Source of the DNA: an uncultured Fibrobacterota bacterium
GTDB taxonomy: Bacteria > Fibrobacterota > Chitinivibrionia > Chitinivibrionales > FEN-1185
Direction: 5' to 3'
Assembly (NCBI GenBank): GCA_963753345.1
Contig: CAVWBU010000047.1
Location: 1 to 64,000 of the forward strand
Length of the DNA: 64,000 nucleotides
In this document: positions 24,509 to 44,682 of the stretch, one piece after another
Numbering within the stretch: position 1 is the first letter of the stretch
Layout of the letters: every line of letters starts with the position of its first letter
Program-made: the position numbers and the translations under genes
Notes under the pieces: generated by a model
Told to the model about the DNA's origin: nothing
Database searches by the model: none
What the model saw: the letters and a program-made list of their open reading frames with translations, nothing else

Positions 24509-24511
24509 CCG

Positions 24512-26137
24512 GTGGCCGCCCCCAACACCCTCATTTCAATCGTGATTGTCAATTTCAAGGTGGCCGACTACCTCAAGCGCACCCTGCTCTCGCTCCGGGA
24601 AGCGGACCTGTACAACCGCTCCGAGGTGATCGTGGTGGACAACGCGTCGCACGACGATTCCCGGAGCCTCATTACGGCGGAGTTCCCCGAAGTGACCTGG
24701 GTGGGACTCAAGAACAACATCGGATTCGGGAAGGCATGCAACGTCGGCGCGAAAAGCGGCCGCGGCGACCTATCTCCTGTTTCTCAACCCGGACACGCTC
24801 GTTTCGAAAAACACCCTGCAGACATGCGTGGATTTCTTCGAGCTCTCATCCGGGCGCCGGCATCATGGGGCCCAAGATCCTCAACGCCGACGGAACGCTG
24901 CAGGCTGGATGCAGGCGGAGTTTTCCCTCGCCGCTGGTCGCGTTTTACCGGCTCGCGGGCCTGAGCAGGCTCTTCCCCAACAGCCGCCGCTTCGGCAGAT
25001 ACAACCTTACCTTACCTCGACCCCGGCGCACTTTCCGAAGTGGACGCGGTGTCGGGGTCGTTCATGTTCGTTTTGTCAAGGCTTTTCCACGACATCGGCG
25101 GTTTCGACGAGACGTTCTTCATGTACGGTGAAGACCTCGACCTGTGCTGCCGCATCAAGGACAGGGGATATTCGGTGTGGTACAATCCGGCGACCACGAT
25201 CATCCACTTCAAGGGCAGGAGCGCCGCGAAACGGATGTGGAAATCGCGCAGGGCGTTCTACGAGGCAATGATTCTCTTTTCCCGGAAGTACAAGCACACC
25301 CGCGCGTCGTTTTTCCCGGGATGGCTCATCATGGTGGGCATCCTGTTCCAGGCCGGCGCGAATTTCGTGGGCAGCATCCTCAAAACCTCCACCGCGGTCT
25401 ACATCGACGTATTTGTCATCAACGTCCTGCTCTGGAGCGGCATAACCCTGTGGTTTTCTTTTCTGTCAATGGTGAGCCCCTATGCCGGGGGAAGCGTGGG
25501 GATGCTGCTGCTCATGCATGTCCTTCTGTCGCTCAGTTTCGTGAGCAATTTCGCATACCGGGGCGTGTATTCAAAGGAACGGTACTCGGCGGTCAACGCG
25601 ATCGTATCGGGCATGACGGCCTCGGTGGTTTTCCTGGCGGTCGTGTTCTTCGTGAAATCAATGGCCCTGTCGCGCATCGCGTTCGGGGTGTCGACCGTCT
25701 TCATAACCTTCACCCTGGTTGCCTGGCGCGAAGCGCTGCCGCGTCTCCTCACCCGGTTCAGGCGCGTGGCGTTCAGCACCGGCAGCGTGGTGATCCTCGG
25801 TTCCGACGATGTCGCCGCCACGCTCATTCGAAATGTCGAAAACGACCCCTCGGCGAACCTCCAGGGGATCCTGTGGCCGTCGGTAAACGGCTCCCCCGGC
25901 GAATTCATGGGATACCCGGTGCTCGGCCATATCGAGAACATCAAGGACGTGCTGTCCCGGCAGCACGTCGACCTCCTGCTCATCGCCACCGACCAGCCGT
26001 GGTACTCGCACCTGATCGAGGCGCTCGCAACCGTCAAGGTCCGCAACCTCACCATCCGCTGGGTCCCCACGGAATTGTTTACGTTCCCGCGTGACAAGCT
26101 GCCGGGAGTGATTCCGCTGAGAGATTTTTCGGTATAA
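24512..26137 (+). CDS. GT2 glycosyltransferase with C-terminal membrane and Rossmann-like domains; frameshifted
   Basis: [14 protein letters not shown] and GFGKACN in one frame; DAVSGSFMF and [11 protein letters not shown] in another; indels between about 24770 and 25015. Confidence 0.8.
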
Positions 26138-26756: not shown

Positions 26757-27641
26757 ATGGCAGAAAACGACACGGCAAACAACGACTCCGGCAATCAACC
26801 GAACCAGCCCGCAGGCGACGAAGCTTTGCAAGCCGCCCCGGAAACCGTGGCCCTCGAAATCACCGACGAGCAGGCGGCCGACAATGCCGCGGCCATGGAG
26901 GAAGAAAGCAGGGCCGAGGTTGCCGTTCCGGAAAACAATTCGCCCGACAATCCCCTTCGCGTGCTCGAGGCGCTGCTCTTCGCCTCCGACGAAATCCTCA
27001 CCACCGACAGGATAAAGGCCATTGTGCCCGGCATTCCGGACGGCCGCAAGATCCGGCAGATGGTTGACAAAATAAACGAGCATCTCGCCAAAGAGCGCCA
27101 CCCGTTCGAGGTCGTGGAGATCGGCGGCGGGTACCAGTTCCGCACGGTTTCGTACTATTATCCCTGGGTGGTGCAGCTCTTCAAGGAGAAGGCCGCGCGC
27201 AAGCTTTCCATCCAGTCGCTCGAATGCCTCGCGATCATCTCGTACAAGCAGCCCATCACCAAGGCCGAAATCGAATCCATACGCGGCGTGATGTCCGACG
27301 GCGCCATGAAGACGCTGCTCGAGAAACGGCTCGTGACCATTTCGGGCCGCAGCGACAAGGCCGGGCGTCCGTTGCTCTATGCGACCACCAAGGAATTTCT
27401 CGCCTACTTCGGCATCAACAAGATCGCCGACCTGCCGAGGATCGAGGAATTCGAGGCCATGGCAAAGGAGAAACTCGGCGACCTTACCGAAACGGAACTC
27501 ACGTTCATGGAGGCGGAAAAGACCGCGGCCGCGGATGTGCCACAGGCGCCCGCCGCGCCCGAAGAAACGGTGGCGCTTGACCAAAGCGAATTGCCGCAGG
27601 ACGCGCCGCAGGACGCGCCTCAGCCGCCCCAACCGTCATGA
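26757..27641 (+). CDS. scpB: SMC-Scp complex subunit ScpB
   Basis: LEALLFAS, GGGYQFRT, LECLAIISYKQPITKAEIESIRGV and GRPLLYATTKEFL; acidic N- and C-terminal extensions. Confidence 0.92.
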   Translation: MAENDTANNDSGNQPNQPAGDEALQAAPETVALEITDEQAADNAAAMEEESRAEVAVPENNSPDNPLRVLEALLFASDEILTTDRIKAIVPGIPDGRKIRQMVDKINEHLAKERHPFEVVEIGGGYQFRTVSYYYPWVVQLFKEKAARKLSIQSLECLAIISYKQPITKAEIESIRGVMSDGAMKTLLEKRLVTISGRSDKAGRPLLYATTKEFLAYFGINKIADLPRIEEFEAMAKEKLGDLTETELTFMEAEKTAAADVPQAPAAPEETVALDQSELPQDAPQDAPQPPQPS

Positions 27642-30316
27642 CGTCCCTCGAATTCCAGTCCCCTTCCGATTCGCTCACCCCGCTCATGCGCCAGTACAAC
27701 GCCATCAAGGCACAGAACCCGGACACCGTGCTGCTGTACCGGATGGGCGATTTCTACGAGATGTTCAACGAGGATGCGAAGATCGCGTCAAAGGTGCTCG
27801 GGCTCACCCTCACCGCGCGCAACCACGGCGGCGCCGAGGACGTGCCGCTGGCCGGATTTCCGCATCACGCCATCGACCGGTACGCAAACCGGCTGGTCAA
27901 GGCCGGATACAAGATCGCCATCTGCGAGCAGACCGAAGACCCCAAGAACGCCAAGGGCGTGGTGAAGCGCGACATCGTGGAGATCATCACGGCCGGTACG
28001 GCGACCGAAGACAACTTTATCGAAGAAAAGAGCAACAACTTTATCGTGGCCGTGGTCGCCGCGGCCGACGCCCTGGGGATCGCCATTTGCGATCTGTCAA
28101 CAGGGCTCTTTGAGGCCGAGGAAATTCCGAAGGACATGCTCGGCGAAGAGCTTGTCCGCATCGATCCCGCCGAGGTCCTGCTCGCCGGCGAGGAGGACAA
28201 CCCGCTTTGCGCGGATGTAAAGAATGCGCTGCCGCAGGCGCTCGTGTCGCGCTACGATGCCTGGAAATTCGAGCATGACATAGCCGACAAGTATCTGTGC
28301 GGCCATTTCGGGGTCGCCACGCTGTCGGGCTTCGGGTTTTGCAACCTTGGATGCGGCAGCGTGCGCGGCCGGGGGACTGCTTTCCTATCTTAAAGACCAG
28401 AAAAAGAACGATCTGCGCCACATCGTGGCGCTTTCTCCGCGCGCGCTGTCGTCGTTTGCCGACCTCGACCCGTCAACGATACGCAACCTCGAGCTGCTCC
28501 GCCCCATGCACGCCGACGACGAGGACGGCACGCTCCTGTGGGTGCTCGACAAGACGAGCACCGCCATGGGCGCGCGGCTGTTGCGCACATGGATCACCCA
28601 CCCGCTGCGGGACATCGGGGCGATTGCCGAGCGGCTCGACAGCGTGGCCTGGTTCAAGGCCGACGTGTTTGTCAAGGGCGAGGCGGAACTGTTCCTCAGG
28701 CAGATCGCCGACATCGAGCGCCTGATCGGCAGGGTCGCGTACGAGCGCGCCAATGCCCGCGACGTTTCCGCGCTCGCAAAGTCGCTGGCGGTGTTTCCCC
28801 GGATAGTCAAGCTCCTTTCCGCCGCGCCGAGCACATCGCTGGCCGAAGCGCGAATGTCTCTCGAAGGGTTCGAACCGCTCGTGGAATCGGTGCTTAAGAC
28901 CATCGTGGAGAGCCCGCCGCTGTCGATAAGGGAGGGCGGAATCATCAAGACCGGCGTGTCGGCCGAACTTGACGAAGTGAGAAGCGCAACCGTAAACGGC
29001 AAGAAGTGGATCGCCTCGCTCCAGGAATCCGAGAGCAGCCCGCACCGGCATTTCGTCGCTGCGCGTGGGATACAACCGCGTGTTCGGCTATTACATCGAG
29101 GTGTCGAAGGCGAACCTCGGCTCGGTGCCGGAGAATTACATCCGCAAGCAGACGCTTGTCAACGGGGAACGGTTCATCACGCCCGAGCTCAAGGACATGG
29201 AGGCCAAGATCCTGGGCGCCGACGAAAAATGCGCGGCGCTGGAATACGATCTGTTCGTGGCGCTGCGCTCCCGCATCGCAGGCGCAGTGCGCCGCGATCC
29301 AGAAGGCGGCGCGCTCAATCGCCCTGCTCGACGTGTACCTGTCGCTTGCAAAGGCCGCAACGGAATACGGCTACTGCCGGCCCGTGCTCGCGGAATCGGC
29401 CGATCTTGCGATACGAGAGGGCCGGCACCCGGTGGTGGAGCGCATGCTTTCGGCCGGCGACCAGTTCGTTCCGAACGACACCGACTGCCGCGCGGCCGAC
29501 TCGCAGATATTGCTCATCACCGGCCCCAACATGGCGGGAAAATCAACCTATTTGCGGCAGAACGCGCTTATCGCGCTCATGGCGCAGATGGGTTCGTTCG
29601 TGCCCGCTTCCTCGGCGCAGATCGGCGTTGTTGACAGATTCTACACGCGCGTGGGCGCGTCCGACCGGCTCGCGCGGGGACAAAGCACCTTCCTGGTGGA
29701 AATGATCGAGGTGGCCAACATCCTCAACAACGCCACCGACAAAAGCCTCGTGCTGCTCGACGAGGTGGGCCGCGGAACCTCCACGTTCGACGGCATCTCA
29801 ATCGCCTGGGCGGTCGCCGAGTACCTGCACGAGGCGCAGGGCAGAAGGCCGCGCACGTTTTTTGCCACGCATTACCACGAGCTCACCGAGCTGGCCCTTC
29901 TGTTCCCGCGAATCAAGAACCTGCACATCAAGGTGAAGGAATGGAACGACAAGATAATCTTTCTGCGCAAGATCGACCTTGGAAGCTGCGACCATTCCTA
30001 CGGCATCCAGGTCGCGCGGCTCGCCGGCGTGCCCAAGGCGGTGATCATCCGCGCAAAGGAGATTCTGGCGAACCTTGAGAACATGGAGTTCTCGCCCGAC
30101 CACAAGCCCATTCTCGCCCGACACCGGGAGGCCAAGAAAAGCGCGCAGCAGGAAGCAGAACGTTTCGATGTCGGCGTGCAGCTTAATATGATCGACGCAA
30201 TGAAGGGGGAAATCATACAGCAGCTTTTAGACTTGGATTTGAATCAGCTGACGCCGCTTGATGCGTTGAACTTGATAGCAGAATTGAAAAAGAGGGCGGG
30301 GGAAATACCGGAGTAG
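27638..30316 (+). CDS. mutS: DNA mismatch repair protein MutS; split by about three frameshifts
   Basis: [50 protein letters not shown] and ATHYHEL spread over ORFs 27638, 28347, 29065 and 29006. Confidence 0.93.
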
Positions 30317-30340: not shown

Positions 30341-30591
30341 TTGGGCGTTCCCCCGCTTCGCGGGGTCGGGCAATATTTCCGTCCTTCCTGTTGGACGGGT
30401 TACTTCCTTCCGGTCTCGGGCCTAAAAATAAATAAAGAGCTGGGCGTTTCCCTCGCTGCGCTCGGGCCGGTCTCCCTTCGGGCTCGGCTACTCGCCTCGT
30501 TACCGCCTGCCACGAGGGCCCTGCGGGCCGTGGTCAGGCGGTAATTCGCTCTAGCTCACCCTCCGGTCCACCTAACGCGCGGCAGAGGGAA
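30341..30591 (+). repeat. Family A truncated copy (30341-30422) plus full copy A4 (30440-30591)
   Basis: Two TGGGCGTT heads; the second continues to CTCACCCTCCGGTCCACCTAACGCGCGG. Confidence 0.85.
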
Positions 30592-30648
30592 TCTATTAGG
30601 GCAATTTATTCTTCTTGCGCCAAACTGCGGAATTGCAGAACTTGACAT

Positions 30649-31272
30649 TTACGGACATGTCTGCGTAGTTCGCCACGTACTGTCTCGACAAGTTTTTGTT
30701 ATCCATTGAGAAATGGAATCGGGGATATTGCAAAGCAAATTGAAATTGACGTTTATATAAGCAACACTACATTCCATAATGTTTGGTGAAATACTGGAAA
30801 TATAATTGGCATCGAAAAGCAGCCCAATAGCGCTTTTCAATTTGCCAATTTCATCCGGAATTCTTTGCAGCTTGTTAGAGTCAAGACGTATGGTACCCGC
30901 ATAGAAAATAGTATCCGTAAAAATTAGAGAATCGATATTGTTATTCTGTAACTCTAGAGTTGGGATAGATAAACTATTCAAGTACTTTGAAAATACAAAC
31001 TTAACTAATGATCGTGACTTTAGATTGATTTCAGCAACCTCGGAATTGGCCAAAACAATAACATCTCTCACCTTCACCGTATCTAACCCATTCTCATCAA
31101 GTATGGCCCGTACGGCTAATGAATCACCTTTGCTCAACATATTGATTGGTGGCCCGTCTGAAGGGTTGCTGCCGAACCAGAGGCCCTGAAGATCACAGCT
31201 CAGAAACAATGCGGACAAAACAAGAACCGCCCACGTCACGGAACAGACCGGTTTTCTCTTATGTAAGTTCAT
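30649..31272 (-). CDS. AT-rich leucine-rich-repeat lipoprotein
   Basis: LFLSC lipobox; DSLAVRAILDENGL; LRR units LELQNNNI, LDSNKLQRIPDEIGKL and VNFNLLC. Confidence 0.8.
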   Translation of the reverse strand: MNLHKRKPVCSVTWAVLVLSALFLSCDLQGLWFGSNPSDGPPINMLSKGDSLAVRAILDENGLDTVKVRDVIVLANSEVAEINLKSRSLVKFVFSKYLNSLSIPTLELQNNNIDSLIFTDTIFYAGTIRLDSNKLQRIPDEIGKLKSAIGLLFDANYISSISPNIMECSVAYINVNFNLLCNIPDSISQWITKTCRDSTWRTTQTCP

Positions 31273-31295
31273 ATAATAGACTCAGTTCACCTGTA

Positions 31296-31390
31296 GATTG
31301 CTTCGCTTCGCTCGCAATGACACTTGTTTTTCTTTGTCCAGTTTTCGGGTATTAACTTTTCAACTATTCAACGCTTCAACGTTTCAACTA
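31296..31390 (+). repeat. REP-like unit plus tandem 8-mer array
   Basis: AGATTGCTTCGCTTCGCTCGCAATGAC followed by TTCAAC units at 8-nt spacing. Confidence 0.65.
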
Positions 31391-31396
31391 TTCTCC

Positions 31397-31547
31397 GTGG
31401 GTGCCCCCGCAACACTGTTCGGTCTAGCAGCTACTTTGTCAAGGGGGCCACCCTAGAGGGGGTAGCGCAGGACCGGTCGCGCAATTCCAGCATTCTGTTT
31501 TGCAAAGTTGTGCGACCGGGCCGTAGCGAGGGGGAGCCTTCCTCCAC
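31397..31547 (+). repeat. Structured repeat family B, copy B1
   Basis: GGGTGCCCCC...GGGGGCCACCC hairpin, GAGGGGGTAGCG.AGGACCGGTCGCGC...GCGACCGGGCCG.AGCGAGGGGGA. Confidence 0.85.
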
Positions 31548-34500: not shown

Positions 34501-35069
34501 GACAGCGAACTCATCTTTACTGATGCGACCGTCTTCGGCTTCGACGACGAGACAACGAAACCGCCGCCGAAACCCCAGTGATAGGCCACATCCGTGTCGC
34601 CGACGGGCGTGGTCGAAAGCGCCACGCTGTCGCCGAACGCGCCGCTCAGGGGGGGCTGGCCAAGCGGTGACCGCAGGTACAGGAAAAACTCCTGCGGAAC
34701 CCGATCGCCGTTGTTGCGGTAGGTGGTGACCGTAATCGTTTTCCAGCCGGTGTCGGTGAGCGAAAGGAGGTATGTGTACGGCCCGGACTCAAGCGGCTGA
34801 TGCTTTCGTACCGTAAACGTATCCGCAAGGCGGCGGTTCGAAGGGGCCGTAATCGAGAACGAGTCGACAAGCTCGCAGTTGGCCACCCTCACCACAAGGG
34901 TCTCGGTTGTAAAGATATTGAGCGTGTCGACGTCGTTAAACGACTTGTGCGTCACCACTGCGCGCGCCTTTGAAAGGTCGGTAAACGGGTTGTAATCGTT
35001 CGAGCACGACACCAGCGCAAATGCCGCGACCCATGCCCAGCGCACCCGGAATCGGAAGTGAATGTTCAT
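31570..35069 (-). CDS. Large surface lipoprotein (Ig/cadherin-like repeats, DUF2341, LamG); two frameshifts
   Basis: LVSC lipobox; ORFs 33555, 32447 and 31570 overlap and join near 33860 and 32615; FPLLVRL...DVRF...YQIERWD...VWVKV (DUF2341); WTHLAGTYDG...LYVNG...GKIDE (LamG). Confidence 0.75.
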
Positions 35070-35076
35070 CGGCACC

Positions 35077-35937
35077 TTAGAAGAAGAAGGAATACGTGAA
35101 ACCGCACGCGCCCGCCAGTCCTACGATATAGCCCGCCGTCATGAACCCCGCATTGCTGTTCCGGCCGCTCTGCGCCGCTTTGAAATCGGCGTCCCCGTTC
35201 GGATTATACAGGTCGCCCGTCACCTGGGTCATGCGCTGCTTCGACGCGTCCCACTGCTCGGTGAACACCGCGCCGACCACGGCGCCCACCACCAGCAGCG
35301 ACAGCCCCGTATAGCGAATTGCGTTCCGCTTGGGCGCGTCCGGGTCCGTAAGGATCTTCACCGGCACGCCGTCGACGGACGCGTTCTTTACGGAAAGCGA
35401 ATACGAGTACGGCTCAGCGCCGACGTTCTGCGTCTGGCCCTCGATGGTGAGGCTGGCCCGTCCGTTTTCCCTGAACACGCCCTCCAGAATCCGGACGAAT
35501 TTGGTGAGCGAGTTGATGCCGTAGACCGAATACGCCACTTCCACGTGCTGCAGGTCGGTCCCGATGGCGTCGTCGTGGACAAAGATGCCGTTCCAGTCGT
35601 AGGGGTTGGGAAGCAGGGCCGCCCCGGGGTTGAAGCGTTTGTCGTTCTCGGAAGTAAACACCACGGGGCGGGCGGCGGTGCCCTTCGCAACGAGCATGCC
35701 CTGCACGTGCAGTCCCGTGAAATTCCTGAAAAGAAAGACCGTCCCTGCCTCGACCGACACCGTTTTTCCCGCCGGCACAAAAACATCCGACGTGACAAGG
35801 TACGGGCCCTTCTCGGCCGCAACCGTTCTGGGAAGGTCGCCCACGAGCGTCGCAAAGCCGCCGAACGAGGCACGGGTAATAAGGCCGCACAGGAGCGCGG
35901 CGGCCCACAGCGGGAGATTGCGGCCGGAATGCGTCAT
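35077..35937 (-). CDS. Exported beta-helix-like protein with C-terminal membrane hairpin
   Basis: Signal peptide; GPYLVTSDVFVP.GKT...L.VQG.L.A.GT...PVVFTS...WNGI motif; two C-terminal hydrophobic segments. Confidence 0.65.
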   Translation of the reverse strand: MTHSGRNLPLWAAALLCGLITRASFGGFATLVGDLPRTVAAEKGPYLVTSDVFVPAGKTVSVEAGTVFLFRNFTGLHVQGMLVAKGTAARPVVFTSENDKRFNPGAALLPNPYDWNGIFVHDDAIGTDLQHVEVAYSVYGINSLTKFVRILEGVFRENGRASLTIEGQTQNVGAEPYSYSLSVKNASVDGVPVKILTDPDAPKRNAIRYTGLSLLVVGAVVGAVFTEQWDASKQRMTQVTGDLYNPNGDADFKAAQSGRNSNAGFMTAGYIVGLAGACGFTYSFFF

Positions 35938-35939
35938 GG

Positions 35940-37799
35940 CTACCCCCGCACGTCCTTTGCCCTGTCCGCGATCCTTTGCATTTCGGAAACCGCCTTCTGA
36001 TAATGGTTGTTTTCGGGCGTCGAGCGGAAGAGCAGCTTGACCTCGAACCACGCGTCAAAGGCGTTCTTCATGGTCGCCTGGCCCGGATGATCGTCGAATT
36101 CCCTGGAATAGCTGAGCGCACGGTAGTACAGGACGTCCTGGCGGAGGACGACCGGATTGACGATCTCGCAGTGCGATTTAAGACTTGCGTCCAGAAAGTA
36201 TAGGCACTTTTCGAGATTGCCCGTCCTGAAGTGATACTTCGCCTGGGCCAGGTAAAATTCCCCGTCGTCAAGCGTTGACGACTGCAGGACGTTGTCCAGG
36301 GATTTGGTGTCGCCCAGCGCCTCGAGCACAAGGATGCGGCACAGCACCGCGGACTTCGACTGCTGCTGCTCGGCGGTCATTGCCCCGTACACGGTGGAGG
36401 CCTGCTCGTATTTCCCGAGTTTGACTTGCTTGACAAAAAGCTCCAACAGGTCCGTTGTGCCGTACTGTGCCTTGAGTTCGTCCAGGGGCGAGACCGTCGG
36501 CAGCGGCTGCGACGCCGTCTTTTCGGCCGGCGCGGCGAACGCTATCACGGGTTTATGGGAGGGCTTCGGCGCGGACATGAGCTTTTCACGCACGCCGGCC
36601 GCGGTGGGCTCGCTATGCGGGGCCGGTACAGCCTTCGGAACCTGACGCGCGGCCGATTGGGCCGCCTGCCGCTGCGCCAACCGGTGCTGGTAGGCAAGAT
36701 AGCCTGCGGCCGTAACGGCCGCAATCACGGCGGCCGCGGTCAGCACGCCGGCAATGGCGCGCAAGGGCAGCCGCCGCCGGTACCCCACTTCGGTCCTGCC
36801 GCCGTTTTCCGATCCCGTAAAGGACTGCATGACCGCTTCCGGCGACAGCGCAGTGAGGCTTTTGTGCACCCTGGTGAGCTCGGCGAGCAGGACCGCCGCG
36901 TCCTGCGGCCGGCGCTCGCGCTCCCGGCTGAGGCACTGCTGGATGACGCGCCTGAGCCTCGCCGGGATTTTGATCTTGAACGAATCAAGCGGCTTAAACT
37001 CGTTCTTCACCTTGGACAGCATCAATTTGGAGATGTTGTCTTCGGCGAATGCCTTGGTCCCGGTCACCAGCTCGTACAATATGGCGCCGAGGGAATAGAT
37101 GTCGGTGCGCACGTCCGCGGTCTTTCCTTCGAGCGTCTCCGGAGAGAGATACTGCATGCTGCCGAGCACCGAGGAATTGTCGGTGGTGTGAATGGATGCG
37201 TCGATGGGCCGCGCGATGCCGAAGTCCATGAGCTTGACGGTGCCGTCGTCGGCCACCATGATGTTGTTGGGCTTGAGGTCGCGGTGGATGATGCCGTGAT
37301 ACGTTTCCCCGTACAGCGCATACTCGTGGCTGTGAGCGTAGCGCAGCGCGCGGCAGATAAGAATACCGATGGAGGTGCATACGTCAAAGGGCAACCCGCC
37401 GCGGTCCGACACCAGCTTTTCCAGGGTGACGCCCTGGATTTTTTCCATTTCGATGAACGGCAGGCCGTTCCATTCGCCCACGGCGTGGATTTCGACGATG
37501 TTCGGATGGTCGAGCTTGGCGGTTATCTTTATTTCCGTTTCAAACCGCTCCTTTGAATCCTTCGAATAATTCGGATGGAGAAGTTTGACCGCGCGCTTCA
37601 TTTCGAGATGATTGTTCCAGATCTCATACACGTTCGCCATGCCGCCCACGCCCAAAAGCGCGGTGACCGTTCCGGAACCGAGCTCAACGGGCTTGGAGCC
37701 ATCGGGCAGGATCATCACATGAGGCACCCGCTTGTAGGAAAACGAGCCGCCATCCTGCTGGGTTGGCCGGGCCTTTTCCTGATTGTTTTCAGAATCCAT
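35940..37799 (-). CDS. Hanks-type Ser/Thr protein kinase with TM segment and TPR-like extracytoplasmic domain
   Basis: GVGGMANVY, AVKLL, HRDLKPNN, DFG and YLSPE; TM IAGVLTAAAVIAAV. Confidence 0.92.
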   Translation of the reverse strand: MDSENNQEKARPTQQDGGSFSYKRVPHVMILPDGSKPVELGSGTVTALLGVGGMANVYEIWNNHLEMKRAVKLLHPNYSKDSKERFETEIKITAKLDHPNIVEIHAVGEWNGLPFIEMEKIQGVTLEKLVSDRGGLPFDVCTSIGILICRALRYAHSHEYALYGETYHGIIHRDLKPNNIMVADDGTVKLMDFGIARPIDASIHTTDNSSVLGSMQYLSPETLEGKTADVRTDIYSLGAILYELVTGTKAFAEDNISKLMLSKVKNEFKPLDSFKIKIPARLRRVIQQCLSRERERRPQDAAVLLAELTRVHKSLTALSPEAVMQSFTGSENGGRTEVGYRRRLPLRAIAGVLTAAAVIAAVTAAGYLAYQHRLAQRQAAQSAARQVPKAVPAPHSEPTAAGVREKLMSAPKPSHKPVIAFAAPAEKTASQPLPTVSPLDELKAQYGTTDLLELFVKQVKLGKYEQASTVYGAMTAEQQQSKSAVLCRILVLEALGDTKSLDNVLQSSTLDDGEFYLAQAKYHFRTGNLEKCLYFLDASLKSHCEIVNPVVLRQDVLYYRALSYSREFDDHPGQATMKNAFDAWFEVKLLFRSTPENNHYQKAVSEMQRIADRAKDVRG

Positions 37800-37993: not shown

Positions 37994-39145
37994 CTAAGAA
38001 CGGTTCGCCCCGGAGCGGGGGCTGTGATCCTCAACCGGCATGAACCATTTCTGGGCGACAAAAGTCGGAATGACCGCGCTTGCCACAACGACACCAACTA
38101 AAATAGAATATTGAGATTGGTTGATAATTCCCGATTGTAAGCCGAAAAGGCTTGAAATAGTTCCAAAGGTCAAGCCGGTGCTCATGAGCAGCGTCGTATA
38201 CATACTACCCTGAGGAATGTATTTCTTTGCAAGAAAATAGACCCCGGCAAATTTGGCGATTATTTTGAGGAAGAAAAACAATAAAAACAGGCCAAGGCTT
38301 GCGACAATCAAAGGGTAAGAAATCCTAAGGCCGCCAACGATGAAGAAAACCGGGGTTATAATGGCATAGGCCACTGTGCGGAGACGTTGTATAACCAAAT
38401 GGTGTTCCGATTCCTTTCCGAAATACTTGGACATGAATAGGCCAAGCACAAAAGCGGGAAGCACTGCATGTCCTTCACCGAGGTTGGCGAAATAAATAAG
38501 GGTCAATAAAAGCACGAAAATGTACTTGATCTCGGATTCAACCACCTTATTCTTGAATACCGAATGGCTAAAAAGGTAATGAGAAAACAGGGACGCAACG
38601 ATTATCACTGCAATAGAAACGACATAAAATAGAAGCGTGAACCATGTCGGCTTTACAAAAATAACACTTAGCGTCAAAGCCGTACCCATGTCCGTGATGA
38701 ACGTTGACGACATTAGAAGCTTACCTATGCGAGTATCCGACAGACCGCTTTCCACAAGGACGGAATAAATGACAGCTAGGGACGTCGTTGATAAGGCTAT
38801 TCCCGCAACAAGTGCAGCTTGAATACCCCAGTGCAGCGCAAACAACGCAACGACTGCCACTACAATAAACGGTAGCAAAAATGAAAAACCGCCGATCAGC
38901 AGACTGCTTTTCAGGTTCTCCTTCATCATTTTCGTGTCGATTTCGGTTCCGGCAAGAAACGTGAGAATAATACCGCCGAATCCTGCCAGGTACTGCATCC
39001 ATTCTGCCGTATGCAGGCCGAAATTACCGGCAATAGAACCAAGAAGAATTTCGACAATCGCTACTGAAATACCGAGACGCAATGAGATTATGCTTGCGAC
39101 AAAGATAATCAGACCTGTGAATAAAGGATTTAAATCCGCGTGCAT
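37994..39145 (-). CDS. Cation:proton antiporter (CPA2 family)
   Basis: About 12 hydrophobic segments; LTFLAGTEID, ALSTTSLAV, ITDMGT and PVFFIVGG. Confidence 0.88.
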   Translation of the reverse strand: MHADLNPLFTGLIIFVASIISLRLGISVAIVEILLGSIAGNFGLHTAEWMQYLAGFGGIILTFLAGTEIDTKMMKENLKSSLLIGGFSFLLPFIVVAVVALFALHWGIQAALVAGIALSTTSLAVIYSVLVESGLSDTRIGKLLMSSTFITDMGTALTLSVIFVKPTWFTLLFYVVSIAVIIVASLFSHYLFSHSVFKNKVVESEIKYIFVLLLTLIYFANLGEGHAVLPAFVLGLFMSKYFGKESEHHLVIQRLRTVAYAIITPVFFIVGGLRISYPLIVASLGLFLLFFFLKIIAKFAGVYFLAKKYIPQGSMYTTLLMSTGLTFGTISSLFGLQSGIINQSQYSILVGVVVASAVIPTFVAQKWFMPVEDHSPRSGANRS

Positions 39146-39150
39146 GACAG

Positions 39151-39241
39151 CCTCCTATGAGAAAATGAAGCAAACCATAGGAGTCATCAGCCACATCTTG
39201 AGAGAAGAAGAATAGCGGTTTAAGGTGGAACTCCATCACCT
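39151..39241 (-). ncRNA. Fluoride riboswitch (crcB motif) with RBS-sequestering expression platform
   Basis: AGGTGATGGAGTTCCACCT-TAAACCGC...GCTGATGACTCCTATG; CTCCTATG pairs with CATAGGAG, which covers the AGGAGG RBS of the antiporter. Confidence 0.9.
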
Positions 39242-39266
39242 ACGAACAATTAATATTCTTAAAACG

Positions 39267-39703
39267 TTATTTCCGGTCAGGCCTCCTCACAATTAATACA
39301 TCGCAGTGGGCCGTTTCACTGATTCGGTCCGCCGTTGGTCCAAGAACCCTGCCGATAAAGCCGGAGTGGCCGACTTGACCAATTACAATTAGATCAAAGC
39401 CGTTTTTTTCGGCATACTGTACTATCTCGCGAGAAGCGTTTCCCCGCAGATTTACCGATTGCACGTTCATATTATGATCAACTGCGCCTTTTTCGGCATA
39501 GCTCTTAAGATTATTGAAATATTCCTCCACCGCTTCGATTTCACCCTCAATTCGTCCTTTCTCACAGCTTGACGAGGTAGGTCATCACGAACCCATCCTA
39601 TGGTGATTGAGGCATTGTGTTCCTGAGCAACAGTAAATGCACGGGCAAGCGCGGCCTTCGACCCGTCCGATCCGTCAAAGGCAGCAAGGATTTTTTTATA
39701 CAT
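39267..39703 (-). CDS. Universal stress protein (UspA family); frameshift near 39540
   Basis: [19 protein letters not shown] in one frame; [12 protein letters not shown]...[20 protein letters not shown] in another. Confidence 0.85.
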
Positions 39704-39704
39704 A

Positions 39705-40986
39705 TCACCTCGCATTCTTGAATGATTTCTTTCCGGCAAAAACAGCCTGTTTCCCAAGGAATTCTTCGATTCGAATCAATTGATTGAACTTGGCGGTGCG
39801 CTCGCTCCGGCAGCCTGAGCCGGTTTAGGGGTGCTGCACAAGTTACGACTGTCAAGTCCGCTATCGTCGTGTCTTCGGTTTCGCCGGAACGGTGCGAAAC
39901 GAAACAGTTGTAATTATTCTTCACCGCCAATGCAATTGTATCGAACGTCTCGGTAAGCGTACCGATCTGGTTCAGCTTTATGAGAATGGAATTTGCAATG
40001 CCCTTTGCAATGCCCTGCGCCAGAATGGCCGGGTTTGTGCAGAAAATATCATCACCCACAATTTCGATTTTGCCGCCGAGTTCATCGGTCAACAATTTCC
40101 AGCCATCCCAGTCATTTTCCGCCATGCCGTCTTCGAGGAGAACAATCGGATATTTGTCTGCCCAACTTGCCCAATGCTTGACCATCTGTTCGGAGGTCTT
40201 TGACGATTTGTCAGACTTGAAAAACACATATTTGCCGCTATCCCACATTTCACTTGCAGCCGGGTCAAGGCAGATTGAAATATCTTTGCCCGGCTGATAT
40301 CCTGCTTTAGTGATGGCATCGAGGATAACTTCTACAGCCTCTTCATTGGATTTAAGATTCGGGGCAAAACCTCCTTCGTCGCCGACCGCCGTGCTATAGC
40401 CCTTTTTCGAAAGAACAGATTTCAGCGTATGAAACGTCTCGATTCCCATTCGTATCGAAGTGCGAAAATCGGGGGCATTGTGCGGAGCGATCATGAATTC
40501 CTGAAAGTCAACGTTGTTATCGGCATGCTTTCCACCGTTAATGATGTTCATGCAGGGAACCGGAAGGAGGCTGGCGTTCACGCCGCCCAAGTACCTGAAC
40601 AAGGGTACATTAAGATTGTTGCATGCCGCCCGAGCCACCGCAAGAGACACGGCGAGGATCGCATTTGCACCCAATACTGATTTATTAGGAGTGCCGTCGA
40701 GTGAAAGCATGACAGCGTCAATTTCTCTCTGATTCAGGGCGGACATTCCTTTGACGGCCGGTGCGATTTTCGTATTTGCGTTTTCGACTGCTTTAAGAGT
40801 GCCTTTGCCGAGATAGCGTTTTTTGTCCCCGTCTCTTAGCTCAACCGCTTCCTTTTCGCCGGTCGATGCACCGGACGGGACAATTGCACTGCCCTTTATG
40901 CCATTTTCAAGGGTTACCTCAGCTTCAACAGTGGGATTTCCCCTTGAATCCAATACTTCTCTTGCATGGACATTTGTGATTTTCAT
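39705..40986 (-). CDS. eno: Enolase; frameshift near 39825
   Basis: [39 protein letters not shown] and SHRSGETED; the alternate frame gives [21 protein letters not shown]...NAR* ending at 39705. Confidence 0.95.
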
Positions 40987-41027
40987 AAGGATTCCTTTCT
41001 TGGTGGCTGTTTTATCGCCATTGGGAC

Positions 41028-41065
41028 AAAAAAAACTCCTACTGATACTTTTTACCAGTAGGAGT
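41028..41065 (-). terminator. Riboswitch-controlled intrinsic terminator
   Basis: ACTCCTACTG-N11-CAGTAGGAGT stem followed by a T run; its 5' arm is the aptamer's pseudoknot strand. Confidence 0.9.
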
Positions 41066-41107
41066 CATCAGCCGAAATTCAGGCGTTTATAGGCGAACTC
41101 CATCGCC
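41058..41107 (-). ncRNA. Fluoride riboswitch (crcB motif) aptamer upstream of eno
   Basis: GGCGATGGAGTTCGCC-TATAAACGCC...GGCTGATGACTCCTAC matches the crcB-motif consensus, including the GGAG/CTCC pseudoknot. Confidence 0.93.
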
Positions 41108-41114
41108 AGAAATC

Positions 41115-41143
41115 AAAATACATCAAAAAGAAATATAATCCAA
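41115..41143 (-). promoter_or_regulatory. Putative sigma70 promoter of the fluoride operon
   Basis: TTGGAT-N17-TATTTT, ending 7 nt before the first G of the aptamer. Confidence 0.55.
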
Positions 41144-41228: not shown

Positions 41229-42269
41229 CTACGTCTCCCGCACCTCGTCCCAGTCGGCCTTGACCATGATCTCGACGAGCTTGTCAAACGAGACTGACGG
41301 CTTCCACCCGAGACTTCTTCGCGGCCTTGGCCGGGATTGCCGAGCAAGCAGGTCCACTTCGGCGGGCCGGAAATACTTCGCGTCCACGCGGATCACCACG
41401 TTGCCGCTCGCGGTATCGGTGCCGGTCTCGTTGACTCCCTCGCCCGACCATCGGATGGGCATGCCCAGCGCGCTAAACGCCTTCTCCGCGAATTCCCGCA
41501 CCGAATGCGTCTCACCCGTGGCGATCACATAATCGTCCGGCTTGTCCTGCTGAAGCATGCGCCACATTGCCTCCACGTAGTCGGGCGCATAGCCCCAGTC
41601 GCGCTTGGCGTTGAGGTTGCCTATGTAAAGGCACTGTTTCTTGCCTGCCTTGATGGCCGCCGCGGCCATGGTGATCTTGCGCGTGGAGAAATTCTCGCCC
41701 CTGCGCGGCGACTCGTGGTTGAACAGGATGCCGTTGCTCGCGTGGAGGCCGAAGGCCTCGCGGTAGTTCACCACGATCCAGTACGCGTACAGCTTGGCGA
41801 CCGCATAGGGCGACCGGGGATGAAACGGCGTGGTCTCGCTCTGCGGGACCTCGTGCGCCTTGCCGAACAGCTCCGACGTCGATGCCTGGTAGAACCGGGT
41901 CTGGATGCCGGTCTCCTTGATTGCGTCGAGGATGCGGAGGGTGCCGGTCGCGTCGACGTCGGCCGTGTACTCGGGCACCTCGAACGACACCGCCACGTGC
42001 GACTGGGCCGCCAGGTTGTAAATCTCGTGGGGCTTTATCTTCTCCAGGAGCCTGTTCATGTTGCTCGAATCGGACATGTCGCCGTAGTGGAGAAAGAAAT
42101 TGACGTTCTTGTCGCGCGAGTCGCGGAACAGGTGGTCGATGCGCTTCCGGTTGAAGTAGCTGGCCCTGCGGATCTGGCCGTGGACTTCGTACCCCTTGTC
42201 AAGCAGCAGCTCCGCAAGGTACGAGCCGTCCTGGCCCGTAACGCCGGTGATGAACGCGCGCTTTGTCAT
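41229..42269 (-). CDS. gmd: GDP-mannose 4,6-dehydratase
   Basis: [32 protein letters not shown] and [10 protein letters not shown]; compensating indels near the C-terminus. Confidence 0.95.
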
Positions 42270-42450
42270 GAGATCCTTTCGGTGCGCCCAGGACCGCGGC
42301 ATGGCCGCGAAAGTCTGTTCCCGGGTGCGGGGTGCATTGTATTTTTACATGCGCCCGCCTGTGTGGAAGCGCTTCGGGCCGGGGCACACTCCAAAAATAA
42401 TACAGCGAACACACGTCTGTTTACAACAAAGCAATCGGATCAACCGCTTC

Positions 42451-44682
42451 ATGGACCAGCCGCTCACCACACCGCAGACCCCTCCCCCGCCGGCGCCCCC
42501 CGTGGCCGGCAAACGGGTGGCCGCGGTCGTTCTGGCCGCGGTGTTCCTGTGCTCCTGCGCGTTCGCCGCGGCCGGGTGGTTCCTCTACCGCATGTACGAG
42601 ACCCTGCCCACGCTCGACCAGCTCGAGAACATCGAACCGCCGCTCTCGTCGAAAGTCCTGGGAAAGGACGGCTCCCTCATCCACGAGTTCTCCATTGAAA
42701 AGCGCTCGTGGGTATCGCTCAAGGACATTCCGCAGAACCTCGTCAATGCGGTGATCGCCATCGAAGACCGCAAGTTCTATACGCACTGGGGCGTTGACCT
42801 CAAGAGAATCCTCGGCGCCGTGTTCGTGAACCTCGGCAGGCGCCACTACGCCCAGGGCGCGTCCACGCTCACCCAGCAGCTCGCGCGCAACGTGTACCTG
42901 TCAAGCAAGACCTCCATGGTCCGCAAGATCCGCGAAGCCATGACCGCGATGCAGATCGAGCAGTACTACGCCAAGAGCGAAATCCTCGAGCTCTACCTCA
43001 ACCAGGTGTACCTCGGCGCGGGCGTGTACGGCGTAGAGGCCGCCAGCCAGTGCTACTTCTCAAAACACGTGTCGCAGCTTTCGCTCAACGAATGCGCCGT
43101 GCTCGCCGGGCTCATCCAGCTGCCCGAGCGGTACCGGCCCGACCGCAAGGCGAACCTGAAAAACACGGCAGCCCGGCGCGCGCGGGTGCTTGCCGCCATG
43201 GTGTCGATGCACTATCTCGACAGGGCGGCCGCCGACGCCGTTGACAAAGCGGACGTTCCCTCCAGGCCGCAGACCGACGTGTCGAAATGCGCCCCGTATT
43301 TCGTGGAGATGGTGCGGCAGTACTGCGAGCAGAAATACGGCGACGACATGCTCTACAACGGCGGCCTCACCATCTACACCACGCTCGACCCCGGGGCCCA
43401 GGATTCCACCGAAACGGCGACCACGGCGCACCTCGCCGGGCTCCAGAAAAAAATGAACGGGATCTACCTTGACAAAACGCGCATGTTCAAGAAGCTCAAG
43501 ATCTCCCGCGATTTCTTTGCCGCGCATTTCGACTCGGTCTATGCCGCCCACCGCGCCGAGTGCGAGGCCTTCCCCGATTCCCTGCGCCTGCGGATCGTCC
43601 AGACCGCGGTGGTCGCCATGGACGTGAGCAGCGGCGCCGTCCTCACCCTGGTAGGCGGCCGCAACTTTCTCGAAAGCAAATTCAACCGCGCCGTGCAGTC
43701 GGTGCGCCAGCCCGGGTCCGCCTTCAAGCCCATCGTGTACACCGCGGCCATCAATCACGGGTTTACGCCCGCGAGCGTCATCCTCGACCAGCCCATCACC
43801 CTCCAGACGCCGCAGGGCGAGTGGCGGCCCGAGGACTTCGACGGCACGTTTCAGGGGCCGGTGACGCTGCGCCACGCGCTCAACCATTCGCTCAACCTGG
43901 TCGCCATCCAGGTGTTCATGCAGGTGGGCGGCGACACCGTGGTGAGTTACGCGCGCAGGATGGGCCTGCGCCAGCGCATAGAGCCCGTGCCGTCGCTGGC
44001 CATCGGTTCGTGCGAGGTGGTGCCCATGGAGCTGCTCGCGGCCTACGCCATTTTTCCCAACAAGGGAATGCGCAACGAACCGTATTTCGTGGAGCGCATT
44101 ATTGACAAAAACGGAAACGTCCTGGAGGAGCACGATCCCGCGCCCGTGCAGGTCCTGTCGGCCCAGACCTCGTACATGATGTGCGACCTGCTTCGGACCG
44201 TGGTCCAGCGGGGGACCGCCGCTGCTATTCCCGGCCTGGGCTTTACCCGGCCCTCGGCCGGAAAAACCGGCACGTCCAACGATTTCTCAGATGCGTGGTT
44301 TGTGGGCTTCACCCCGCAGATCGCGTGCTGCGTGTGGGTGGGCATGGACGAGCGGCTCTCCCTCGGCTACGGCGTGACCGGTTCCGCCGGCGCCGTGCCG
44401 CTTTACGTAAAGGCAATGATCGCCCTGCACCGCAAGGTGCCCATTGAGAATTTCGCGAAACCGGACAGCATCGTGACCGAGAAGGTGTGCCCCATTTCCC
44501 ACAAGATCGCCACTGCCTACTGCCCCCAGCCCTACGACGAGACGTTCATCGAAGGCCAGACGCCCGAACAGTGCGACATGCACGGACCGGGAAAGGTGAA
44601 GAGCGAGAATTCCACCAATATGTTCGGGCCGAAGGAGAAGACGGGGGAGAAAGTTCCTGCTAAAAAGAGATTAATGTTCTAA
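42451..44682 (+). CDS. Class A penicillin-binding protein (PBP1A family)
   Basis: AIEDRKFY.H.G, QGASTLTQQLARN, RKIREA, QPGSAFKP and AGKTGTS. Confidence 0.93.
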   Translation: MDQPLTTPQTPPPPAPPVAGKRVAAVVLAAVFLCSCAFAAAGWFLYRMYETLPTLDQLENIEPPLSSKVLGKDGSLIHEFSIEKRSWVSLKDIPQNLVNAVIAIEDRKFYTHWGVDLKRILGAVFVNLGRRHYAQGASTLTQQLARNVYLSSKTSMVRKIREAMTAMQIEQYYAKSEILELYLNQVYLGAGVYGVEAASQCYFSKHVSQLSLNECAVLAGLIQLPERYRPDRKANLKNTAARRARVLAAMVSMHYLDRAAADAVDKADVPSRPQTDVSKCAPYFVEMVRQYCEQKYGDDMLYNGGLTIYTTLDPGAQDSTETATTAHLAGLQKKMNGIYLDKTRMFKKLKISRDFFAAHFDSVYAAHRAECEAFPDSLRLRIVQTAVVAMDVSSGAVLTLVGGRNFLESKFNRAVQSVRQPGSAFKPIVYTAAINHGFTPASVILDQPITLQTPQGEWRPEDFDGTFQGPVTLRHALNHSLNLVAIQVFMQVGGDTVVSYARRMGLRQRIEPVPSLAIGSCEVVPMELLAAYAIFPNKGMRNEPYFVERIIDKNGNVLEEHDPAPVQVLSAQTSYMMCDLLRTVVQRGTAAAIPGLGFTRPSAGKTGTSNDFSDAWFVGFTPQIACCVWVGMDERLSLGYGVTGSAGAVPLYVKAMIALHRKVPIENFAKPDSIVTEKVCPISHKIATAYCPQPYDETFIEGQTPEQCDMHGPGKVKSENSTNMFGPKEKTGEKVPAKKRLMF

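Follow-up and report, generated by a model that had tools for sequence, protein, structure and literature searches.

Two predicted fluoride-riboswitch units lie head to tail in an eno–USP–antiporter cluster from a Fibrobacterota genome

Introduction

The crcB gene of Bacillus cereus is an example of a gene under a transcriptional fluoride riboswitch. In the general design of such switches, as given in the accessible part of PMC11077080, one strand has two roles: the 3' strand of the aptamer's pseudoknot also serves as a terminator's 5' arm, with a U-run after it. Genes for enolase (eno), universal stress proteins (USP), and Na+/H+ antiporters are all documented associates of the crcB motif in the available portions of PMC5533749 and PMC11139923, as the first-pass annotation of the DNA described here had stated. 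According to the available portion of PMC11139923, Na+/H+ antiporters come second only to exporters in frequency among the classes of fluoride-riboswitch-associated genes, and fluoride inhibits enolase with a Ki of about 80 uM.

A riboswitch-led operon that contains both eno and uspA is found on a genomic island in Enterobacter cloacae FRM (the GI3 operon). In the accessible text of PMC5533749, this operon is induced by fluoride (176-fold for eno and 120-fold for uspA), and it has one riboswitch, upstream of ppaC, and two mRNAs with a single leader. It also includes the crcB exporter, ppaC, and gpmA, and, unlike the locus that we describe, that text gives it no CPA2 antiporter.

Two or more complete riboswitches in sequence ahead of one open reading frame are known as a tandem (pseudo-cooperative) riboswitch, and Table 3 of PMC9481103, a source available in part, lists fluoride among the classes without a tandem arrangement. 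Outside the gene-association lists and supplements of the founding paper, the literature that we found on multiple or tandem fluoride riboswitches consists of engineering work. What we found on tandem or internal riboswitches, and on CPA2 antiporters and fluoride, describes neither the layout reported here nor the biochemistry of the antiporter.

Two fluoride aptamers in one cluster

The stretch of DNA that we analyzed (the window) is 64 kb long. On its minus strand, two fluoride-riboswitch units are arranged head to tail in one cluster, in the order aptamer 1, terminator, eno, USP, aptamer 2, Shine-Dalgarno (SD) helix, and antiporter. We refer to the eno–USP unit as unit A and to the antiporter unit as unit B.

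The first-pass annotation had proposed two fluoride aptamers and suggested an Rfam covariance search as a check. In that search, both aptamers matched RF01734 well above its gathering score of 34 bits, and in both cases positions 1–64 of the 64-position model were covered. Aptamer 1 (41116–41052, minus strand) scored 59.4 bits (E = 6.2e-14) and aptamer 2 (39249–39171, minus strand) scored 50.5 bits (E = 4.7e-11). These were the only Rfam matches in the whole 64 kb. Our own covariance model (R1) gave 69.0 bits for aptamer 1 and 52.4 bits for aptamer 2. Aptamer 1 has GGCG/CGCC as its P1 helix, a pseudoknot in which GGAGU (41101–41097) pairs with ACUCC (41065–41061), and a P3 with one mismatch, while aptamer 2 has an extended P3 hairpin. 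All five pseudoknot columns (GGAGU/ACUCC) are paired in both aptamers of the window.

Across a set of 27 aptamers, P1, the pseudoknot, and P3 together are 94.5% paired, and 7 of 13 pairs are changed on both sides. Within this structure, pairing in the pseudoknot helix is complete (100%), and three of its five pairs covary. None of 500 shuffles was as good as the 27-aptamer structure, and all of the slid controls were beaten as well. These results support the classification of both RNAs as canonical crcB-motif fluoride aptamers of ordinary kinds, which are predicted to sense fluoride.

In both units, the expression platform competes for the 3' strand of the pseudoknot: the 5' arm of the terminator (41066–41053) holds ACUCC, and the anti-SD arm (39183–39175) holds CUCC.

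Switch 1 is of the terminator type

The intrinsic terminator of switch 1 (41066–41028, minus strand) has a hairpin at 41066–41034 with 14 pairs, of which 5 are G-C and one or two are G-U, around a loop of 5 nt. A run of eight U at 41035–41028 overlaps the hairpin and then extends beyond it. The hairpin folds at -21.8 kcal/mol (z = -5.04), and none of 200 shuffles equaled it. There are four terminator-like sites in the region, compared to 4.5 ± 2.0 in shuffles, and the one in switch 1 stands out by its size and position only. The first-pass annotation was right to see the 3' strand of aptamer 1 in the 5' arm of the terminator, as the pseudoknot's ACUCC lies inside that arm; its count of 10 bp for the stem was too low. 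Switch 1 thus has the design of the transcriptional fluoride riboswitches, and the one difference is that it precedes eno and USP where they precede an exporter. In the absence of fluoride, the ACUCCUAC... strand would form the 5' arm of the terminator and transcription would stop. If fluoride is present, the strand would be kept in the aptamer's pseudoknot, and RNA polymerase would read through eno and a USP gene that is probably translationally coupled to it.

A leader promoter had also been proposed. The putative site, TTGGAT-N17-TATTTT (41143–41115, minus strand), has a -10-like hexamer that ends 7 nt before P1, but it is weak (7/12 in our -35/-10 scoring) and not verifiable. No hexamer pair ahead of switch 1 scored above 8/12, a value matched by 38% of shuffles, and a promoter scan reported no promoter-like site on the minus strand upstream of either switch.

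Switch 2 is of the SD-sequestering type

At 39183–39143 (minus strand), just ahead of the antiporter, CUCCUAUGG (39183–39175) pairs with UCAUAGGAG (39160–39152). The helix has 9 pairs and a 14-nt loop and covers most of the SD sequence AGGAGG (39156–39151), which is 5 nt ahead of the antiporter's ATG (39145–39143). There is no T-run 3' of the helix. The local fold of this platform (z = -2.06; equaled by 4 of 200 shuffles) bears out the earlier proposal that a strand of aptamer 2 pairs over the antiporter's ribosome-binding site, and the full 110-nt region of the switch showed no extra stability relative to shuffles (z = -0.13; 87 of 200). At -13.4 kcal/mol, the duplex is the longest and strongest among the 34 units analyzed; because a GGAG-type SD always complements CUCC, only 4–5 additional pairs are informative. 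In our model of unit B, CUCCUAUGG would mask the ribosome-binding site by pairing with UCAUAGGAG when fluoride is absent, and when fluoride is present, the pseudoknot would take CUCC and the antiporter would be translated.

Other SD-type fluoride riboswitches that precede the same CPA2 family (for example at loci L021, L025, L011, L002, and L079) resemble switch 2: they have no T-run, the start codon is 31 nt past the pseudoknot strand, and the SD region is complementary to a strand of the CUCCUA type. The window's unit differs from these by the length and strength of its helix and by its position, 17 nt behind a gene that is predicted to be fluoride-regulated instead of behind an unrelated gene.

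An intact antiporter and two genes with broken frames as deposited

The antiporter (37994–39145, minus strand) is an intact, CPA2-type cation:proton antiporter of 383 amino acids. It matches PF00999 (E = 2e-39) over positions 2–372 of the 375-position profile, and it is up to 92% identical to metagenome proteins and 80% identical to the antiporter at L001, from a Fibrobacteres MAG. The full-length PF00999 match and the aptamer upstream place it in the riboswitch-linked subfamily of predicted CPA2 antiporters.

The first-pass annotation identified the other two genes correctly, as confirmed by Pfam (Enolase_N and Enolase_C for eno, and Usp for USP), but missed that both reading frames are broken in the deposited sequence. 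In eno (40986–39705, minus strand), codons 1–387 are in one frame (40986–39826), and the final 41 codons and the stop (39824–39705) are in another. Two nucleotides are lost at 39825, where a single A stands in place of a Lys codon that is conserved among homologues and that we take to be catalytic. In tblastn comparisons, five intact homologues of 427 amino acids (the closest is 91% identical) switch frames at 39826/39824. The Enolase_C match ends at profile position 254 of 296, so eno does not qualify as intact. Past the break, the 41 codons are 83% identical and reach the homologous stop. We considered a programmed frameshift, and rejected it after inspecting the sequence, which lacks a slippery motif and whose read-through product would still omit the conserved Lys.

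In USP (39703–39267, minus strand), whose ATG is preceded by the SD sequence GAGGTGA, positions 1–55 and 70–141 of the Pfam model are on two ORFs in different frames, so this gene does not qualify as intact either. The break is near 39560 (39562–39558), where 1 nt is lost, with 5 nt replacing two codons. Matches to three homologues move from frame -1 to frame -3 between 39557 and 39548.

The breaks in eno and USP are both in A-runs. The window's mutS gene has three more frame breaks, and the first of these is beside a GGGTTTT run. We see about an even chance that the breaks arose as errors in assembly or base calling and that the organism itself has working copies of all three cluster genes. 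They look like single homopolymer-length changes in otherwise intact and conserved coding sequence, and the closest eno homologues are intact at 427 amino acids. However, random errors over 64 kb would be unlikely to cluster five times within about 4.5 kb and three genes, and eno has lost 2 nt instead of the usual 1 nt.

Alternatively, the breaks could be real: if mismatch repair has been lost, then homopolymer indels would accumulate, and eno and USP would be decaying while the antiporter cassette is kept. We view this as a possibility, held tentatively. All five mapped breaks are in just three genes (three in mutS and one each in eno and USP), while other long genes have full Pfam coverage. 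The antiporter is intact despite having as many homopolymer runs as the broken eno (24 versus 19 runs of at least 4 nt). Also, the protein collection contains the window's own frameshifted eno product, of 462 amino acids, which places the eno break in the deposited record. On the other hand, the count of five covers the breaks that we mapped in part of the window's genes, and homopolymer-length errors are typical of some sequencing chemistries. As the protein sequence past each break is still well conserved, the breaks must have arisen very recently or else be artefacts. Genuine breaks would mean that unit A controls pseudogenes, and the premature stops could have polar effects on the antiporter. 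Without read-level confirmation of the frames, the locus is unsuitable as a model.

The aptamer–antiporter cassette in other genomes

Among 80 loci with related antiporters, 66 have a fluoride aptamer (63 were found with model R1, and L007, L018, and L022 were found with Rfam only); a further three of the 80 have no upstream sequence at all. In two sets of loci, 13 of 14 and 17 of 17 members have a single RF01734 match immediately ahead of the antiporter gene. The expression platforms vary: of 33 related units, 11 have a strong hairpin with a T-run, and 20 have no T-run. A promoter-like pair that scores at least 9/12 is found within 70 nt upstream of P1 in 14 of the 33, and eight of those 14 score at least 10/12, which is reached by at most 2% of shuffles. 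The antiporters of Fibrobacterota are 60–67% identical to those of methanogen or haloarchaeal MAGs. The combination of a fluoride aptamer and a CPA2 antiporter is a widespread, highly conserved, and self-contained cassette in bacteria and archaea. This conserved, travelling cassette is the more solid result of our analysis, and its biochemistry in fluoride tolerance is uncharacterized in the literature that we found.

At L001, the genome locus closest to that of the window, the antiporter unit is on its own and follows a gene for a PAS histidine kinase. The similarity between L001 and the window starts at P1, and we found no homology upstream of aptamer 2. Other loci have related gene sets. 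In L044 and L057, from Thermoleophilia, an aptamer is followed by a dynamin-like GTPase, the antiporter, and USP. In the Klebsiella pneumoniae plasmid NZ_CP084857.1, an aptamer (5789–5849 of L081; 53.9 bits) is followed by an antiporter, USP, and two MutS-like genes; this antiporter is only 38.7% identical. In contrast to the window, these three operons have one aptamer each and no internal switch.

A second aptamer on the same strand with genes in between was found in none of the 62 related loci that have at least 2.2 kb of upstream sequence. We rejected L017 as a second serial case: its second match scores 25.5 bits, has no GAUGG core, and is separated from the first by a gene on the opposite strand. 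We also rejected L009, where eno is upstream of an aptamer and the antiporter, as a parallel, since its contig ends 24 nt before eno and a leader aptamer cannot be assessed. In L009, the antiporter's aptamer comes with a terminator of its own and is separated from eno by two small ORFs.

Are the two switches in series?

No terminator-like site was found between 41034 and 39145, and the genes are tightly spaced: 1 nt separates the eno stop from the USP ATG, and the USP stop is 17 nt from aptamer 2 and 25 nt from its P1. Both features favor read-through from USP into the antiporter, which makes it plausible from the sequence that the antiporter is in part gated twice. The best explanation, and in our judgment a probable one, is that this is a fluoride-response cluster in which two individually canonical units were juxtaposed in a Fibrobacterota genome. 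Unit B would be a copy of the widespread cassette that came to lie just behind USP, and it may also be transcribed from a promoter of its own. Transcripts released by switch 1 would run into unit B, and because nothing terminates between the units, the antiporter would be gated twice on those transcripts. The enolase would provide extra copies of an enzyme that fluoride inhibits, and the antiporter would counter the acid load from HF.

Taken in its strict form, the model of the first-pass annotation would have one promoter, one transcript, and switches that evolved as a designed two-step gate, so that the antiporter's response would be steeper (pseudo-cooperative) than that of eno and USP. This might be so, although we are inclined to doubt it. 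The units are on the same strand with operon-like spacing and no intervening terminator, there is no above-chance promoter-like site before aptamer 2, and two complete riboswitches for the same ligand sharpen the response in other classes, according to the accessible part of PMC9481103. Yet none of the 62 related loci discussed above has such an arrangement, and the apparent lack of an internal promoter says little: a promoter in the leader is just as hard to detect as the internal candidate (8/12 each), which makes the absence of a promoter uninformative in this organism. Similarly, L001 scores just 6/12, even though its unit follows an unrelated kinase gene and needs a promoter. As the leader promoter and the necessary one of L001 are equally undetectable, we rejected promoter scoring as a test. 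No related locus has the two-switch layout of the window, and this unmatched layout fits accidental juxtaposition as well as design.

The internal candidate, CTGACC-N17-AATATT (39280–39252, minus strand), lies in or near the interval where, according to the first-pass annotation, an independent promoter would argue against serial gating. Its -35-like hexamer is within the 3' end of USP, and it ends 11 nt before P1 of aptamer 2. If it or another site in the USP 3' end or the spacer were a promoter for unit B, then the two units would merely abut, and the antiporter would in practice be under switch 2 alone. The cassette does stand alone in most loci, 14 of 33 cassettes have a promoter-like pair of at least 9/12 upstream, and the frame breaks affect eno and USP but spare the antiporter. 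Nevertheless, we consider full independence unlikely. The candidate's score of 8/12 is at chance level (32% of shuffles and, within the block's coding sequence, 17% of positions score at least that high), and transcripts from the leader would still read through, with no terminator to stop them.

Juxtaposed units with read-through, which we favor, would share with tandem riboswitches (as described in the available part of PMC9481103) the feature of two complete switches for the same ligand acting on the antiporter, if the genes are co-transcribed, and the same logic of a sharper response. The window does not fit the definition of a tandem given there, as eno and USP (41027–39250, about 1.8 kb) lie between the switches. 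That a steeper, two-step response of the antiporter would result is so far a matter of theory. It is conceivable, if somewhat doubtful, that the locus is a working, natural serial double gate, with the antiporter made only from transcripts that get past a fluoride-dependent terminator and are then unmasked by the SD switch. If the switches do act in series, then the antiporter would be the first gene described as controlled by two fluoride riboswitches, a class that is listed without tandems. Transcriptional and translational mechanisms would be combined to give the antiporter a sharper or thresholded response relative to its operon partners. Using the same sensor twice, with different mechanisms, would then be a natural route to a sharper ligand threshold for one gene of an operon, which would be of interest for riboswitch biology and for the design of fluoride biosensors.

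Composition and origin of the block

The GC content of the block is 46.6%, compared to 57.0%. In 500-nt windows, GC is 0.45–0.50 across 38000–40999, 0.58–0.69 across 35000–37499, and 0.60–0.67 across 41500–44499. GC at third codon positions (GC3) tells the same story (0.46–0.51 for the genes of the block versus 0.79–0.87 for their neighbors), so the earlier remark that the block is AT-richer than its surroundings holds.

The same annotation suggested that the block was acquired as a unit. The shift in GC fits a foreign origin, and compositional deviation is one of the marks of a genomic island. The other marks that we looked for, mobility signatures or phylogenetic incongruence, were not found: the block is flanked by no repeat pair, the 64-kb window has no tRNA, and none of the 50 ORFs that we scanned is a mobility gene. 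The sole exact repeat from the flanking-repeat search is a 15-nt aptamer strand that is common to both switches. The nearest named relatives of eno are from Chitinispirillaceae (83–85% identity), and that of the antiporter is from a Fibrobacteres MAG (80%); like the relatives of the host's uvrC, these are from the host's phylum. Acquisition of the block as a unit is unproven.

As a side observation, two values for the length of the longest contig recur in the protein lists of both genes: 8954 (antiporter P0002, eno P0127) and 7417 (P0019, P0130). These shared values hint at an eno–antiporter linkage in close relatives as well.

Two fluoride riboswitches on one strand

An Rfam scan of the whole window gave exactly two matches to the fluoride riboswitch (RF01734), which were its only Rfam matches, and both are on the minus strand. 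Aptamer 1 (41116-41052; 59.4 bits, E = 6.2e-14) and aptamer 2 (39249-39171; 50.5 bits, E = 4.7e-11) span the full model, whose gathering score is 34. The first-pass annotation had placed its aptamers at 41058-41107 and 39178-39241, and both lie inside these positive covariance-model matches. We aligned the two with 25 aptamers from related loci and counted the pairs in P1, the pseudoknot, and P3 (helices of the crcB motif). Across the 27 aptamers, 94.5% of the cells were paired, and 7 of the 13 pairs showed two-sided changes. None of 500 shuffles reached this level of pairing, and every slid control was far lower. The pseudoknot helix was 100% paired, with covariation in three of its five pairs. 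Both aptamers are genuine members of the fluoride riboswitch class.

The two switches had been proposed to use different mechanisms, and their expression platforms bear this out: switch 1, before eno, has a terminator, and switch 2, before the antiporter, has a helix that sequesters the Shine-Dalgarno (SD) sequence. In switch 1, the strand GACUCCUACUGGUA (41066-41053) contains the 3' strand of the pseudoknot (ACUCC) and is also the 5' arm of a 14-pair hairpin (41066-41034; the earlier count of a 10-bp stem was too low), and a U8 run (41035-41028) overlaps and trails the stem. The terminator fold (-21.8 kcal/mol, z = -5.04) was equalled by none of 200 shuffles. In switch 2, CUCCUAUGG (39183-39175) and UCAUAGGAG (39160-39152) form a helix that closes a 14-nt loop. 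The SD (AGGAGG), 5 nt upstream of the ATG at 39145, is largely masked by this helix, and no T-run was found 3' of the helix. The local platform has a z score of -2.06 (4 of 200 shuffles), and the entire 110-nt region is not more stable than its shuffles (z = -0.13). The duplex (-13.4 kcal/mol) is stronger than that of any other unit in our set of 34, but because CUCC pairs by default with any GGAG-type SD, its information lies in the four or five pairs beyond these. Among 33 units with this cassette (a fluoride aptamer plus a CPA2 antiporter), the platform is a terminator in 11 and lacks a T-run in 20, and switch 2 is a typical case of the latter.

Frame breaks in the cluster and beyond

Pfam identifies the genes of the block (37994-41143) as enolase (eno; Enolase_N and Enolase_C), a USP, and a cation:proton antiporter (PF00999). 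The neighbours on the same strand are a GDP-mannose dehydratase (gmd) upstream and a Ser/Thr kinase downstream. The sequence features noted in the first-pass annotation, including the identities of eno and USP, are real and were correctly identified, yet, of the three genes, eno and USP have broken frames in the deposited sequence, which had been overlooked; the antiporter's reading frame is intact. The alignment of eno to five intact homologues of 427 amino acids (91% identity for the closest) keeps to one frame as far as 39826 and resumes in a different frame at 39824. A lone A at 39825 stands in place of the homologues' Lys codon, which implies a loss of 2 nt in an A-run. Past the break, 41 codons are 83% identical and terminate at the homologous stop. 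Because the frameshifted product (462 amino acids) is itself an entry in the protein collection, the break belongs to the deposited record. In USP, comparison to three homologues puts a frame switch between 39557 and 39548, and inspection of the sequence shows 5 nt (39562-39558, an A-run) in place of two codons.

The gene mutS (27581-30313, plus strand) occupies four successive frames, with breaks near 28350 (adjoining a GGGTTTT run), 29030, and 29280, all on the plus strand, and every piece gives a strong alignment to solved MutS structures. All five mapped breaks are in three genes (mutS, eno, and USP), and full domain coverage is kept in GH2, PBP1A, uvrC, uvrD, gmd, pyrB, pyrC, and two radical-SAM genes. 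The breaks are either errors of base calling or assembly or else real decay in a lineage that is deficient in mismatch repair, a deficiency that would favour exactly such homopolymer indels.

There were two other irregularities. A GT2 glycosyltransferase is split into an N-terminal half (24509-24961, plus strand) and, in the same frame, a matching C-terminal half with a CoA_binding_3 region (24965-26134, plus strand); the single stop codon between them (24962-24964) may be an in-frame nonsense change. At the C-terminus of gmd (41300-41345, minus strand), a short stretch seemed by eye to leave the frame and then return to it, as judged against what we take to be typical Gmd proteins, and Pfam coverage is still 332 of 332 positions.

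The antiporter and its aptamer in related loci

The antiporter family is highly conserved (65-92% identity among the best 120 matches). A search with one genome per species gave 594 relatives, from which we kept 80 loci; these encode a CPA2 antiporter of about 380 amino acids, at about 5001-6150 in most loci. In 13 of 14 and in 17 of 17 loci, Rfam placed exactly one fluoride aptamer directly before the antiporter. With our own covariance model, an aptamer was present in 63 of the 80 loci, or 66 of 80 if we add three Rfam-only matches; three further loci have zero upstream sequence. The related loci include archaeal ones: antiporters from Fibrobacterota are 60-67% identical to those of Methanobacterium, Methanosarcina, Halobacteria, or Micrarchaeota MAGs. 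As judged from these sequences, the fluoride aptamer and the CPA2 antiporter behave as a cassette, which suggests that they have been transferred between domains as a unit. We found no biochemical characterisation of an aptamer-linked CPA2 antiporter in the literature.

Only four loci have two aptamer matches. In two Gaiellaceae loci (L049, 4244-4396, and L074, 4771-4941), the aptamers lie back to back, one on each strand, with 27-45 nt between them, and apparently control divergent genes from a common intergenic region. In L054, the two are on opposite strands and 3.4 kb apart. We rejected L017 as a second serial case because its second match is degenerate (25.5 bits) and the intervening gene is on the opposite strand. 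Upstream sequence reached 2.2 kb or more in 62 loci, and not one of these has a same-strand aptamer followed by genes and then by another aptamer and the antiporter.

eno is near the antiporter in six loci, in varying gene order, and USP matches occur in 19 loci, all downstream of the antiporter except in L043 (upstream). In the locus most like ours (L009, Pirellulales), two small ORFs separate eno from an aptamer that has its own terminator, and this aptamer is followed by the antiporter and an H+-pyrophosphatase; the contig ends 24 nt before eno. In L009 (3349-5316), the enzyme that comes after the riboswitch-controlled antiporter, a membrane H+-pyrophosphatase, belongs to another fluoride-linked class of phosphoryl-transfer enzymes. 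In two loci (L044 and L057), one leader aptamer precedes a dynamin-like GTPase, the antiporter, and USP. On a conjugative IncF plasmid of Klebsiella pneumoniae (NZ_CP084857.1, 5789-10936), an aptamer is followed by a cation:proton antiporter, USP, and two MutS-like genes. Antiporters that are 39-45% identical are carried by 38 plasmid records.

As had been stated earlier, eno, USP, and Na+/H+ antiporter genes are established partners of the motif. In Enterobacter cloacae FRM, fluoride induces an operon that is led by a riboswitch and includes eno and uspA (PMC5533749). Among the gene classes associated with the riboswitch, Na+/H+ antiporters rank next after exporters in frequency, and riboswitch control of enolase is also frequent (PMC11139923). 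Each switch, taken singly, is of an ordinary, known class and controls known partner genes. The unusual feature is the same-strand juxtaposition of switches with different mechanisms, which is unseen in the 62 informative related loci. In other riboswitch classes, two complete riboswitches for the same ligand in series have been termed "pseudo-cooperative," and Table 3 of that report lists fluoride among the classes without a tandem arrangement (PMC9481103). With two genes between its switches, our cluster falls outside that report's definition of a tandem. A literature search, which covered neither the founding fluoride-riboswitch paper nor its supplements, gave no report of an operon with two fluoride riboswitches.

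One transcript or two

Unit A (switch 1 with eno and USP) and unit B (switch 2 with the antiporter) are on the same strand with operon-like spacing. The eno stop is 1 nt from the ATG of USP, whose SD is GAGGTGA, and aptamer 2 follows the USP stop, 17 nt downstream by its Rfam boundary and 25 nt by its P1. We found no terminator-like site between 41034 and 39145. Together, these features favour read-through from unit A into unit B.

Alternatively, unit B might have its own internal promoter. In favour of this, the cassette stands alone in other loci, and promoter-like pairs precede P1 in other units: a -35/-10 pair that matches at least 9 of 12 consensus positions lies within 70 nt of P1 in 14 of 33 units, and 8 units have a pair with at least 10 (matched by at most 2% of shuffles). 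The candidate in our cluster, CTGACC-N17-AATATT (39280-39252), ends 11 nt before P1 of aptamer 2 and scores 8 of 12, which is reached by 32% of shuffles and by 17% of coding positions in the block. Upstream of switch 1, the top-scoring pair likewise has 8 of 12 (38% of shuffles), and L001, where a promoter is necessarily present, scores 6 of 12. Consensus promoter scoring is therefore uninformative in this lineage.

Transcripts from the leader very probably run on into unit B, and any that do so would be subject to some double gating. The serial gate that was proposed earlier, in which one transcript would pass a transcriptional gate and then a translational gate before the antiporter, is plausible from the sequence. 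That the cluster is a functional double gate is a tentative reading, and we lean somewhat against it.

Composition and origin

The block had been described as AT-richer than its surroundings, and its GC content is 46.6% versus 57.0% for the remainder of the window (0.58-0.69 in the windows that adjoin it), while GC3 is about 0.5 in its genes versus 0.79-0.87 in their neighbours. The block is foreign in composition, which fits a foreign origin, but its relatives lie within the host phylum. We detected no direct repeats flanking the block, no tRNA in the window, and no mobility genes among the 50 ORFs scanned there. The host is a member of the Fibrobacterota, as indicated by uvrC, which is 76% identical to a protein named Chitinivibrionales and 57-62% identical to those of Chitinispirillaceae. 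The closest named relatives of eno are also from Chitinispirillaceae (83-85%), and the closest genome match to the antiporter is from a Fibrobacteres MAG (L001, 80%). The earlier claim that the block was acquired as a unit is weak.

Three other stretches (7785-9915, 19759-22038, and 30500-31500) also have low GC, with GC3 of 0.34-0.51 against a background of about 60% GC, so the window holds compositional islands besides the fluoride block. Their products are BNR/Ig-domain and T9SS-tailed proteins or ORFs without a Pfam match.
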